From: Octopus vulgaris
Taxonomy: Eukaryota
NCBI GenBank assembly: GCA_951406725.2
Contig: OX597836.1
Span: forward strand, 39,866,001 to 39,930,000
DNA: 64,000 bases
Direction: 5' to 3'
The position numbers were made by a program, and so were the translations under genes. A model generated the notes under the pieces. That model did not search any database and had not been told where the DNA came from. It worked only from the letters and a program-made list of their open reading frames with translations. This document shows positions 40,241 through 56,389 of this stretch, one piece after another; within the stretch, counting starts at the first letter, position 1, and each line of letters opens with the position of its first letter.

Positions 40241-41075
40241 CTGTTGCATGTAAACTACATATATCGTTAGCGTTATAGTGCTAAATGAATTACACATTCT
40301 TCGAATCCTAGTAATGATATCAAACAGCAAATGCAAAACCAAAAAAAAAAAGAGAAATAAAAAAAAAGCAAAAACAAAAAACAAAAATGCCTTTATCGTG
40401 GTATTTCTTTCGTTCACTATTTATTTATTTTATCGGTTCTCGAGCCAAGATCTGCTGGAACCAATTTTCTTCTAATGATCCATGCTTAGTTATACTCATT
40501 TGCTTCTTCCTTTCACTTTCGCTTTTGTTTTTACTTTCTTTTGGTTGTCTTACCAACAGACTTTGGACAGAACTGGCAATTCCCCATCATCAATTACCAA
40601 TTATTCATTATTCATTATTCATTTTTCATTTCCCTTCATTTTTGTTTTTTGTTACGTGTGTTTTTTCATTGTTTTTTATCCACATTTAACAATTTTCTCC
40701 CTTTAATGAAGCATGTTGCTGTATTTACCATTTACCATTTACCATTTACCATTTGCTATTTACCATCCACTCTGCCAGATCGTCTCCTCCTCTTGAAATA
40801 TTAACGAACATTTACGCGGTAGCTCAATCTGCTAGGAATAGGAACGACAGCCAAATTTTTCCTATAAAAACACCCTATCAGCCAACTTCAAACGAACACT
40901 GTGTAGGGCTTGTTGAAAGGGAAATTTGTATCTAGGACCACACACGATGTATCTAGGAATATTCATGATGAATACAAGGGTACATTATGTGTAATTCAGT
41001 TTTCTGGTGAGCTCAACAGAATTCATTGAACATTTATAATTTTCTAGCAACTTAGTAATTTAATGTAATCCTTGA

Positions 41076-41157
<82 letters not shown>

Positions 41158-41212
41158 GTAGTAGTAGTAGTAGTAGTAGTAACAACAACAACAACAACAA
41201 CAATAACAATAA

Positions 41213-41261
<49 letters not shown>

Positions 41262-41305
41262 TTTACCCCAGTGTCACTTTGATGGCATGCACTGCTCTCT
41301 CACTC
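41262..41305 (+). mobile_element. 5'-truncated stub of TAA-targeting element (same 3' end as 44033-44504)
   Basis: TTTTACCCCAGTGTCACTTTGATGGCATGCACTGCTCTCTCACTC between (AAT)n tracts. Confidence 0.85.
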
Positions 41306-41376
<71 letters not shown>

Positions 41377-41410
41377 TAATTATAATAATAATAATAATAA
41401 TAATAATAAT

Positions 41411-41445
<35 letters not shown>

Positions 41446-41477
41446 TAATTATAATAATAATAATAATTATAATAATG

Positions 41478-41556
<79 letters not shown>

Positions 41557-41576
41557 TAATAATAATAATAATAATA

Positions 41577-41863
41577 AGCCTTAGATATTCTGATTGATAG
41601 AGCGAATAATGCAGATGTTGACAAAGCCCTGACCCATCAATGGCTAATGGCCTCTGGCTTAAAATCTGATACAAAAGGGTTTATCATAGCAGCTCAAGAT
41701 CAATGCCTACCTACAAGGAACTACCAGGCCAACATATTAAAGAACGGCAGTAGCCCAAAATGTCGTGTATGTCAACAACAAAATGAAACCATTGATCATG
41801 TTGTCTCCAACTGCAGTCTTCTTGCGCCTACAGAATATCTCAACAGACTCGATAGAGCTGCAC
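41577..41863 (+). pseudogene. R4/Dong-like LINE fragment with CCHC zinc knuckle
   Basis: HQWLMASGLKSDTKGFIIAAQDQCLPTRNY..CRVCQQQNETIDHVVSNC; starts right after (AAT)n. Confidence 0.88.
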
Positions 41864-41884
41864 TCTTGCTTGATCACTATCTAC

Positions 41885-41960
<76 letters not shown>

Positions 41961-42768
41961 TGAGCAAGCGAGTGTAAACTGCTAGCATCTATCACGCTTT
42001 CACCAACAGTTTTAGCTCATCTCTTGAACCTGCGGAACATCGAAGATTTGACGGTTGGAAACAGAAAGGATTGCTCCAAAATCTGGATGGCAATCATTTT
42101 TATCTCAGTAGCTAGGAATAGCATGAAATGAAGTATCTTGCTCAAGGATACAGCTTGTTTACGAATGTCTATTTGAATTAAATAAATATGTAGAATGAAC
42201 ATAAAATACACAAGAAAAAAATTAGAAAAATATTACTTTACAGCGGAGTAATTACCAGGTAAGTGTCTTGATCTGATAGCATGTGTTGAAACAAAAATGA
42301 TTGCAGCGTGGCAAGGCATTCAAAAACAAACAAAGCCCGTTAATTTCACTTAAACATTTACTGTTTGTAATATAGTGTCAAAATTTTTATGGCTCGAAAC
42401 TGTGACCTAGTTGCTAACAACGTTATCCGTTTCGTCGACTCTTCACCTCATCAGCCGCCGTTGAAAACAATACATAGTAGTTGTCGTAGGCATTTGAGTT
42501 GACCACGAACTGCCAAAGGATCGAAGCGGTTACTTTTTATATTACCCGAGAAATAAGCGATTAACAAACTTTCGAAAGCTATCGACTACATACTCCTAAA
42601 ACGCTATAGGTTGGGGTCACTTAAATACATGACAGGGGTTACACAGAAATTAAACGAATGTGTGCGCACAGTACAGCAACATAGTATGTATGTATACTAT
42701 GTATAATTGGTATGTATGCATGTAGGTACTGATCAATGTATGTATATTCATTTATATATACGTGTATG

Positions 42769-47514: not shown

Positions 47515-48420
47515 AAACAGACCATTTGTAGCTAGTTTCAGCATGCCCTACCCATCGTCTAAGCAATTTTGTTGGCATTATTTTGAAGCCATCATGTACC
47601 AAAAAACCAAGTTTCATTCGGGATAAAATTTAATTCCTTTCCCGTCTTTCCAAAGCATCAGAATTGAACACGATCTTGCTTAATTTTGATGTTCTAAGCC
47701 TCTACTGATATAATCCACACAATTTAGGAATAAAGGCGATTACATATTGTATTAATAAACATTGATAAAAGTGACTTCCAGTAAATTCACCATGGTAATA
47801 TGAGATGCAGTCAAACTTATTCTTGAAAGCAAAAATTTTTGTTTTTCATTGAAAATAATTATCTTCAAATTAAAGTCACAACGATTGGGGCCAAATCGCC
47901 CACTTTATGATACCCCAGTACTTAGAACAGCTATATCAATGAGTTGAAAAAAGTGCGGTACTGCTTTTAGAATAGTGAATGGAAGAGATATTTCGATGAC
48001 TGTTTCATTATCTGGGTAAAATCTCTAGATACTTTGACAGTACTCCTCCGAATAATCCGCACCCAACTCTGAAAGATACAAAGGAGCTGAGCAATAAATA
48101 TTTATCGTTCCTTGACGTAATGGTAATTAAAAATAACACAATCAACACTACTCATATGTATTATACTGTCAGGCCAGGAAAATGTGTACCATTGTTGATA
48201 TAGATACCAGAGACAACGTCTCACAGAACTCAAATGATTTCTACCCAAAGAAAAATAACCATCCCTACTTATAGAAAAATTATATACTGCGTGTGAACAA
48301 ATGGCTATGGAACAACTTAGAGCAATCAAGAAAGACCACAAAAACAAAACATCATACCAGTTATATGTCACCAAAAATATTTTTGACAACACCAAATCAA
48401 AGTTGCTCATCACCAGTCAA
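47515..48420 (+). pseudogene. Decayed Penelope-like reverse transcriptase
   Basis: Manual translation: ACPTHRLSNFVGIILKP..SFIRD; ILLNFDVLSLY; YLQIKVTTIGAK; WKRYFDDCFIIW (47980-48015); LSFLDVMV; RLTELK*FL; many stops and frameshifts. Confidence 0.85.
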
Positions 48421-52159: not shown

Positions 52160-52277
52160 GGCCTGCTCGCTTAGCAGCAGGGTGGCGTCACTTGAAGGCT
52201 AAAACAATGCGAAGCCCATTGTGACCAGCAATGTGTAGTAACATCTGATATCCTGGTCGGTCACGGTGATCACGGTG

Positions 52278-52308
<31 letters not shown>

Positions 52309-52519
52309 TGTATGTATAGTTTAACGTCCGATGATGATGATGATGATGATGATGATACATACATACATACATACATATATACATACATACATACATATAT
52401 ATCACCGTGATCACCGTTACCGACCAGGATATCAGATGTTACTACACATCGCTGGTCACAATGGGCTTCGCATTGTTTTAGCCTTCAAGTGACGCCACCC
52501 TGCTGCTAAGCGAGCAGGC

Positions 52520-53833: not shown

Positions 53834-54241
53834 AAGGAATACGTATATAACCGTGATATCTCGAAAATTATAATAGTTTTATTATAGAAAATGGCACAGT
53901 CGTTCCAAGCGACGAGTCAAGCCATTGATGAATTTATCTAAAGTCTTTGGCCTTTGTATTCAATAATAAAATACTACACATTGTTCTTAGCCAAAGACCC
54001 GAGACAAATACTTCACGAATGAGACCATGAACACCGTCCTTTGAATATGATGGAACATTGCGGTTTGTGAGTCCATATCCACCTGTACCCTAAAAATAAC
54101 ACATTAAACTTATTAATTACAAATGGAAATTCGTATGGTCCACTGACCTGTTTTACGACAGCTCGAACAAATTAATTAAAAATGATGATTCTATGTTTGT
54201 AAAATGGTTAGAAGCATCATTTACGAAAGACTAGGAATATT

Positions 54242-54880
54242 AGTTTCAAATTTTGGCACAAGGCCAGCAATTTTAGGAGAGGGTTAAATCGATCATATCG
54301 ATCCCAACGCTCAACTTGTACTTATTTTATCGAACCCGAAAGAATGAAAGTTTCAAATTTTGGCACAAGGCCGGCAATTTTAGGAGAGGGGTAAATTGAT
54401 CACATCGACCCCAACGCTCAACTGGTACTTATTTTATCGAACCCGAAAGAATGAAAGTTTCAAAATTTGGCACAAGGCCGGCAATTTTAGGAGAGGGGTA
54501 AATTGATCACATCAACCCCAACGCACAACTGGTACTTATTTTATCGAACCCGAAAGAATGAAAGTTTCATATTTTGGCACAAGGCCAGCAATTTTAGGAG
54601 AGGGGTAAATGGATCACATCAACCCCAACGCACAACTGGTACTTATTTTATCGAACCCGAAAGAATGAAAGTTTCATATTTTGGCACAAGGCCAGCAATT
54701 TTAGGAGAGGGGTAAATTGATCATATCGACCCCAACGCTCAACTGGTACTTATTTTATCGACCCCAAAAGAATCAAAAATGAAGTTGACATCGGCGGAAT
54801 TTGGACTCAACGTAAAAACGGAAGAAATGGCGCTTAACAATTGGTCCGGCGTGCTAACGATTCTGCCAGCACGACGTCTT
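54242..54880 (-). mobile_element. SINE family A (alt tail) with 3' half amplified to 5 x 107 bp
   Basis: Units start 54242, 54349, 54456, 54563, 54670; last continues into the tRNA head. Confidence 0.92.
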
Positions 54881-55112
54881 AAAAACATATATTTCAGGTC
54901 TATATTTAAGAGATGAGGAATTATGTACATTATTTACATTCAATAGATATTTGTCCCTATCTTGTTTGTTGCCCACGGGCATATGGCGTAGTGGTTAAGA
55001 GCGCGGGCTACTAGCTCCAAGATTCCGAGTTCGATTCCAAACAGTGACCTGAACAATAACAACAACAACAACAACAACAATAAATAATAATAATAACAAC
55101 AACAACAATAAC

Positions 55113-55195
<83 letters not shown>

Positions 55196-55397
55196 GAGCG
55201 CGATTCGATTGTAAGATCATATTTGAATGGCAAGAAATCCATGGGCCTAGGATTGGGTTCAACACCGGGGTCTAGCGAAACTAACAGGGCCTACAAGTCA
55301 ACCGTGAGAAGGAATAAAACGCAAATGGGCCCATGGATTTCGTGCTCTTCGTCTTGACTGTTTACCTTTGTGAAGAGTTACGTCAATCCTTTTTAAA

Positions 55398-55465
<68 letters not shown>

Positions 55466-55466
<1 letters not shown>

Positions 55467-55652
55467 CAGGACTTACAAACACATATAACATACAGAAAAT
55501 TGCACTACTAGGCACTGCACACATCCTACGCAGAACACTTTCCATACAATAACCATCAGAGCATCACAACAAATCACAGCAAATGGGCCCATGGATTTCG
55601 TGCTCTTCGTCTCGGTAGTGAAGTGAAAGCACACTATAAAAATATAACTACG

Positions 55653-55730
<78 letters not shown>

Positions 55731-55911
55731 CAGGACTTACAAACACATATAACATACAGAAAATTGCACTACTAGGCACTGCACACATCCTACGCAGAAC
55801 ACTTTCCATACAATAACCATCAGAGCATCACAACAAATCACAGCACATACCCAAGGCACAGAGAGCTGCGCTCGGTAGTGAGGTGAAAGCACGCTATAAA
55901 AAATAAAACTA

Positions 55912-55916
<5 letters not shown>
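55466..55916 (+). mobile_element. Two tandem R4/Dong-like 3' ends in (TAA)n (55466-55655, 55730-55916)
   Basis: PGLTNTYNIQKIALLGTAHILRRTLSIQ* plus 3'UTR; same 5' truncation point. Confidence 0.9.
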
Positions 55917-55977
<61 letters not shown>

Positions 55978-55995
55978 CACAATAATAATAATAAT

Positions 55996-56026
<31 letters not shown>

Positions 56027-56074
56027 TCGAAAAATACCTTATGAATGAGAACCTAGGTTCGAAATTTTCCCCAA

Positions 56075-56120
56075 GACACCTGAAGAAGGCTGGAGAGTAT
56101 ATCAGTCGAAAGGTTGTGTT
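56075..56120 (+). ncRNA. Minimal type I hammerhead ribozyme motif (one substitution in stem III)
   Basis: GACAC-CTGAAGA-AGGCTG-GAGAGTATAT-CAGTC-GAAA-GGTT-GTGTT. Confidence 0.65.
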
Positions 56121-56389
56121 AACAACAAACAAGATGAGGACAAATATCCGTCGAATGTAGATAATGTAGATAATGTAAATAATGTAAATAATGTAAATAA
56201 TGTAGATAATGTAAATAATGTAAATAATGTAAATAATGTATTGAAATATTGACATGGAATTGACATTATTGAAGGATTTGTTTAATCGTAATATTCATTG
56301 TGGTTCTGCTAGTTCTTGAAAGATAGAAGCAACAACAACATCACCAAGACCACTGTTGTTGCCATGAACACCCTCACTACCACTATCAC

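Follow-up and report, generated by a model that had tools for sequence, protein, structure and literature searches.

The feature at positions 54895-56240 of the window (the whole stretch of DNA that was analysed, 64,000 nucleotides in length) is best explained as a terminal repeat (pLTR) that a Poseidon-type Penelope-like element (PLE) left here head-to-head and that has since decayed; the tRNA-derived head of this repeat likely marks the start of the element's RNA and likely served as its Pol III-type promoter. Taken as a whole, I put this explanation slightly above an even call. The parts of the window copy, from left to right, are:

54895-54971, minus strand: inverted second arm, 5'-truncated, consisting of the body end, the 9-mer and the full 32-nt tail (the tail at 54895-54926)
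54972-54976, plus strand: short leader of the direct arm, matching the final bases of the partner 3' UTR that precede the head
54977-55052, plus strand: tRNA-derived head, with an A box at 54984-54994 and a B box at 55029-55037; tRNA-Arg(TCT) is the best match among 36 tRNA genes compared
55053-55193, plus strand: 5' part of the (AAC/AAT)n linker
55194-55399, plus strand: later insert 1, with no identity assigned and a single partial match elsewhere (L052)
55465-55655, plus strand: later insert 2a, a LINE 3' end terminating in (AAT)n, with a 34-nt piece in common with insert 1
55729-55916, plus strand: later insert 2b, a second 3' end of the same LINE as insert 2a, 95-98% identical to the best copies elsewhere
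55917-56022, plus strand: 3' part of the linker, (AAT/AAC)n
56023-56153, plus strand: body, matching the 5' part of the coding region in the partner's Penelope ORF; the first ATG lies at 56045 and the frame is broken in the window copy
56075-56120, plus strand: minimal type I hammerhead, with the predicted cut after 56115; position 56112 differs from the family majority
56154-56240, plus strand: 9-nt tandem array of about 9-10 units (expanded), the tail-less 3' end of the direct arm; in the partner its units are the codons Asn-Val-Asn, in frame

Every part named in the original prediction is present at this locus, namely the head with its A and B boxes, the (AAC/AAT)n linker with its inserts, the hammerhead core and the 9-nt array. 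The inverted copy of the tail that was said to abut the head is also real, although the extent proposed for it (54927-54971) was too short, since the arm runs from 54895 and includes the 32-nt tail. Because the inverted arm has this tail and the direct arm does not, the inverted arm was not copied from the adjoining DNA as it stands. The A and B boxes lie 45 nt apart, start to start, as in the host tRNA-Arg gene, and the hammerhead is made up of a GACAC:GTGTT stem I, CTGAAGA, an unpaired A, a 6-bp stem II and GAAA. The copy is about 91% identical to other copies of the family, has no recognisable target duplication, contains a TTTT at 56065 and a TTTTT within an insert, and looks like a dead, decayed insertion.

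LINE 3' ends use the (AAT)n linker as a landing site (55194-55916 in the window), and the same LINE end occurs in the linkers of four other loci (L020, L021, L049 and L270). Judging by a motif, I take this LINE to be R4/Dong-like. Dong-R4 is listed as active in an octopus genome in the available text of PMC13282606, which fits that label. Several other repeats share the window: just left of the feature, at 54235-54777, an internal piece of another SINE-like repeat recurs in tandem as about five units of 107 nt; a 184-nt tandem occupies 13035-13589; and at 52228-52452 an Rfam alignment drew attention to a long, MITE-like inverted repeat around microsatellites.

Head and hammerhead body form a single family, as the original prediction had it. 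The body or tail lies within 1.2 kb downstream of 34 of 45 sampled heads (the remaining 11 of this exact-word sample have neither), and separate searches of the genome with head and body returned 30 loci each, most with both parts in order. Copies occur in 8 of 60 evenly spaced 10-kb tiles, which, scaled to a 2.8-Gb genome, extrapolates to about 37,000 genome-wide (Poisson range 16,000-74,000). Exact 20-mers were found 11,849 times for the body and 5,493 times for the head, and reversed controls gave 0, so the abundance of the family is not due to chance; at exact-match rates of 0.28-0.5 (body) and 0.32 (head), these counts suggest 24,000-42,000 body arms, the number of insertions being lower. 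The size of the family is put at some 15,000-40,000 insertions. At five loci (L246, L255, L256, L259 and L272) the head ends in (AAT)n and lacks a body within 1.2 kb, and such heads could be broken copies, or else a free head-plus-microsatellite SINE, a possible donor of the head. Sequencing runs of five organisms contain the stretch, and none of the runs listed as containing it is recorded as RNA.

The whole unit is carried by an element that encodes a reverse transcriptase (RT), which bears out the earlier proposal of mobilisation by a Penelope-like RT. The route to this partner was a loose end that recurred, in reads and contigs, upstream of the head and gave a word with 690 exact genome matches; the head follows this word within about 30-60 nt in all 20 fetched loci, and in most of them the word closes a GIY-YIG-type ORF. 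Likewise, the head stands directly after the ORF stop in 20 of 20 long ORF loci, and on the N-terminal side the tail, or body plus tail, runs into the ORF in 15 of 30. The majority ORF is 834 aa long (2,502 nt), has no stop and contains DKG, YGLPKIHK, GxxMGS, YVDD and GIY-YIG-type motifs. Pfam RVT_1 matches the partner weakly (E 2.7e-6) and Pfam GIY-YIG gave no match on its C-terminal piece, so the endonuclease call rests on motifs. The order of the pLTR is 3' UTR, head, (AAY)n, ATG, hammerhead, 9-mer and tail, followed by the ORF. As in endonuclease-positive PLEs, then, one ORF with a PLE-type RT plus, at its C-terminus, a GIY-YIG (by motif) is attached to the repeat, and the pLTR holds the ORF start together with a minimal hammerhead. 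The ATG in the body opens the frame, and roughly the first 50 residues are encoded by the hammerhead, 9-mer and tail; in P0123, an 847-aa relative from another source with 55% identity, the N-terminal peptide that overlaps the ribozyme is the same. The tail belongs to this partner and is not a LINE 3' end, again as foreseen. All 150 scored matches to the partner are decayed, with no intact copy among them and a longest open frame of 569 aa. From its motifs and its missing CxxC finger, I infer that the partner is a decayed Poseidon-type PLE; the finger before GIY-YIG is absent by eye, and identity to a finger-bearing family is about 28-35%.

Other PLE sequences were met along the way. The dominant young PLE (781-aa ORF, finger-bearing) was rejected as the partner, as it has a different hammerhead and no shared tail, and a further 20 GIY-YIG loci have no attached tail. 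This young finger-bearing family (L091-L100, for example G000:C16:20834500-20842500) has open 781-aa frames (16 of the 150 matches listed), its direct pLTRs measure about 456 nt and its hammerhead is a U3-A8 variant. At 47540-48170 of the window (plus strand) a different Penelope family, Neptune-like, is represented by a heavily decayed RT fragment that is 32-49% identical to L091. A third abundant hammerhead-like repeat (L039:1-1000, L109, L149, L156 and L172) has U at core position 6 in most copies, and in L039 it sits downstream of a GIY-YIG fragment.

Penelope-type mobilisation of the family is well supported by the structure of its insertions. With clusters touching a locus edge excluded, two arms are present in 34 of 52 clusters from unbiased loci and in 37 of 59 from query-picked loci, and all of these are divergent (head-to-head), the two arms often joining with overlaps of 2-4 nt. 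Where two complete 3' ends could be compared (n=52), the tail is on one arm in 46 clusters, on neither in 5 and on both in 1, against 11.1 expected with both if the arms were independent (P=6e-5). Tail-bearing ends stop at a single base and tail-less ends stop within the 9-mer array. A shared flank of at least 8 nt, read as a target duplication, is present in 26 of 46 cases (a few of them in low-complexity DNA) versus 2.6% of mismatched control pairs. At the level of the family, the inverted 5'-truncated arm, the one-sided tail and the short target duplication are all present, and these are described features of endonuclease-positive PLEs (excerpts of PMC3846280 and PMC8557442); the ends also fit the two internal priming sites on uncleaved RNA described for Anolis Poseidon (in the available text of PMC11167929).

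A mechanism can be proposed on the model of Anolis Poseidon. Transcription from a tandem master would begin at the head, and the RT-endonuclease would nick both target strands some 8-15 nt apart. cDNA would then be primed internally at two sites of the uncleaved RNA, the tail end and the 9-mer, leaving two 3' ends that face outward, one arm bearing the tail. Synthesis primed in the first pLTR would go no further than the head, where the RNA has its 5' end, and so would yield the many short copies, and priming in the second pLTR would yield the rarer ORF-bearing, 5'-truncated ones. The two cDNAs would join head-to-head, and the hammerhead would not set the copy ends. In the window copy, LINE 3' ends later entered the (AAT)n linker.

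What, then, is the head, and did it drive transcription? Its alignment to tRNA-Arg(TCT) scores 59 against at most 39.5 in 200 shuffles, in a comparison with 36 tRNA genes that form an incomplete set. Run on the feature, ARAGORN and Rfam recognised neither a tRNA in the head nor a hammerhead in the core, and both assignments rest on motifs and alignment; such Rfam matches as there are in the window were set aside as microsatellite artefacts. The 5' ends of copies cluster at tRNA position -7 to +1: counted from tRNA position 1, 33 of 45 heads start at -12 to +8, 4 at -19 to -13 (three of these look like fold-backs when inspected by eye), 6 within the head and 2 farther upstream. By direct mapping, 4 of 49 heads (8%, CI 2-20%) reach upstream PLE sequence, a sample that includes four known loci among the first 49 word matches (two short, two PLE-linked), and exact words (850 versus 5,493) put this share higher, at 15-26% after calibration. 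In three full-length copies the first pLTR extends as far as the head, and two of the three end there.

The head is placed directly before the ORF start, where the promoter of a pLTR belongs. A Pol III transcript of the ORF would need a sense strand that is free of T runs. The majority ORF contains no TTTT, where 2.9-4.5 are expected (P 0.048, 0.024 and 0.005 under three codon nulls); under Markov nulls of order 0, 1 and 2 the corresponding P values are 0.011, 0.074 and 0.24. All of the 8 distant PLE relatives have 2-11 TTTT runs each, and the density of TTTT is 0.37/kb in decayed partner copies versus 3.8/kb in the Neptune-like family. Six LINE ORFs are likewise TTTT-poor (3, 3, 1, 3, 0 and 5 runs), GGGG is also absent from the majority ORF, an absence accounted for by codon use, and the bias in Phe codons (6 TTT, 14 TTC) is borderline by itself (P 0.06). 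Matches to the family make up 7,925 of 12.9 million reads in one RNA-Seq run and 6,263 of 12.0 million in a second from the same organism; depth is equal on both strands of this fragmented cDNA, with no pile-up of starts or ends, a pattern that tells neither which polymerase acted nor whether cleavage occurred. The use of the head by Pol III is compatible with these data and may be modestly favoured by them. That a coding PLE was actually driven by Pol III is a more tentative proposition, which, judged from sequence, I would place appreciably below even.

The same element, integrating in the same way, could instead carry the head as a passenger, part of an old SINE that became trapped in the pLTR, with the sharp 5' end produced either by Pol II or by stalling or fold-back of the RT. 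About 34 nt upstream of the head, a TATA-like word overlaps the stop codon of the ORF (in the L182:1490-1530 region and in other ORF-linked copies), so Pol II could start at the same place. Alternatively, a hairpin at the head start could halt the RT or cause fold-back with no RNA end required, and fold-back extensions of 7-79 nt do occur in the family. Other Penelope pLTRs are fixed in length and carry TATA/Inr-like motifs as well as 5'-terminal palindromes of 18-38 bp (according to the parts of PMC3846280 at hand), autonomous elements have been argued to require Pol II (PMC10886601, in excerpt), and the lack of TTTT is not significant under the trinucleotide null. However, the majority head has both boxes perfect and perfectly spaced although its tRNA fold has been lost, the 5' ends gather at the very start of the tRNA-like sequence, and TTTT is absent where related PLEs have many. 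I therefore consider a passenger head unlikely, if a serious contender, and retain the head as the probable mark of the RNA start.

A second question is whether the short copies lead a life of their own. The original prediction of a stand-alone SINE/retrozyme hybrid is not supported, since the tRNA head sits in the pLTR of an autonomous element, the body is the start of that element's ORF and the short copies show no separate lineage. Divergence is 7.8% in the heads of 35 ORF-linked units and 7.6% in those of 45 unbiased short units, and 5.5 and 5.3%, respectively, in their bodies. The two sets have the same majority sequence save for one shared polymorphic site, they share polymorphisms and they show no diagnostic site; at nominally significant sites the short copies are always nearer the majority, and the strongest such site lies inside the sampling word. 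With equal age and no diagnostic differences, in samples of a size that could miss small subfamilies, the short copies look like solo pLTRs and not like a separate SINE lineage, which argues for one source of short and ORF-linked copies. A true SINE, whose solo copies were transcribed independently by Pol III and re-copied in trans by the Penelope protein, I regard as improbable. Such copies do have the tRNA-derived head with A and B boxes that is proper to a tRNA-derived SINE, and they outnumber ORF-linked ones about 4- to 12-fold. Furthermore, pLTR sequences alone can mobilise cargo in trans (PMC3846280, in excerpt) and schistosomes have a Pol III SINE with a hammerhead (PMC6765202, likewise). 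However, a tRNA-derived SINE is a non-autonomous lineage that shares only its 3' part with its partner, whereas here the partner shares the whole unit, including the head; neither diagnostic variants nor an age difference separate the two sets of units. Finally, the usable RNA of Anolis Poseidon must include ORF sequence past the tail (PMC11167929, in the portion available), and the solo copies lack such sequence.

The ribozyme has the CUGANGA / GAAA / NUH core of a minimal type I hammerhead, with stems I and II both predicted by folding, and its unpaired base before stem II, short stem I and palindromic 15.2-16.2 match the minimal form as described in the available text of PMC4209133. Free folding of the core region is no better than that of shuffles (z -0.6 to -1.1). 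Among 77 copies, CTGA[T/A]GA is kept in 58, GAAACGTT exactly in 34 and the whole motif in 25. The family majority reads GAAACGTT at the core, the consensus anticipated by the earlier reading of the window alone. The window copy reads GAAAGGTT in its place and has thereby lost the palindrome needed for dimer pairing, the predicted dimer duplex being +1.0 kcal/mol versus -5.7 kcal/mol in the majority. The hammerhead would probably cleave only as a dimer or with the help of protein. Copies extend about 40-75 nt or more beyond the predicted cut site, so self-cleavage does not make the copy ends. A non-LTR retrozyme, copied by hammerhead cleavage, circularisation and rolling-circle reverse transcription, would suit the palindromic minimal hammerhead conserved in the majority and the derivation of animal retrozymes from pLTRs (10.64898/2026.07.22.740005, in excerpt), but it is hardly credible here, being largely refuted by ends that lie at the 9-mer or tail end and not at the cut site, with copies that are dispersed, single or head-to-head and not in head-to-tail arrays bounded by cleavage, and with no pile-up of read ends at the cut site, a weak point in fragmented cDNA.

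What is new here is a PLE with a tRNA-headed pLTR and many solo copies, Penelope-like integration itself being known. No description of a tRNA-headed pLTR or of a Pol III-driven PLE was found in the largely open-access literature searched, and the family may already bear a name in Dfam or Repbase. The promoter and RNA start of PLEs are poorly known; in this family, tens of thousands of copies would record the RNA start, located at a tRNA-type promoter that lies in a coding element's terminal repeat. Production of the full RNA by Pol III would contradict the expectation, stated in the available part of PMC10886601, that autonomous retrotransposons need Pol II, and, as Pol III RNA is uncapped, it would raise the question of how such an RNA is translated, for which an explanation would be needed. 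Even without Pol III, the family provides a clean genomic test set for two-site internal priming (one-sided tails in 46/52). It also carries a warning, in that some SINE-looking repeats are solo pLTRs.

How does the octopus family compare with known systems, as excerpts of the relevant papers describe them? Like Adineta Pen2a (PMC3846280) and Anolis PAc (PMC11167929; overview in PMC8557442), it has an RT together with a GIY-YIG at the C-terminus in a single ORF. It resembles Penelope/Poseidon pLTRs in combining the ORF start with a minimal hammerhead, an optional 30-40-nt tail at one end and an inverted 5'-truncated arm, and also in its 8-15-nt target duplication and the palindrome at the pLTR 5' end. 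However, its pLTR begins with a tRNA-derived A/B-box head and (AAY)n where described Penelope pLTRs have TATA/Inr-like motifs, its solo pLTRs far outnumber ORF-linked ones, and its ORF is without TTTT. With SM-alpha and Sj-alpha of Schistosoma (PMC6765202) it shares a Pol III-type promoter and a type I hammerhead in a short dispersed repeat, but those repeats are described as often tandem, ribozyme-processed and non-coding, and the excerpts name no partner for them, whereas the octopus unit forms both the ORF start and the terminal repeat in an element that codes for protein, and cleavage does not generate its ends. The TRIMp3 elements Cassandra, Helenus and Ajax (PMC10886601) likewise have a small-RNA-derived Pol III promoter in a retrotransposon terminal repeat; they are non-autonomous LTR elements whose autonomous partners are expected to be without the Pol III repeat, whereas the coding PLE of octopus shares the head. 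The octopus SINE OR1 is a CORE-SINE (PMC4824008). Finally, animal non-LTR retrozymes (10.64898/2026.07.22.740005) are, similarly, non-coding derivatives of pLTRs that bear hammerheads, but they are defined by head-to-tail tandems, with no tRNA head mentioned in the available text, whereas the octopus family is dispersed and head-to-head.
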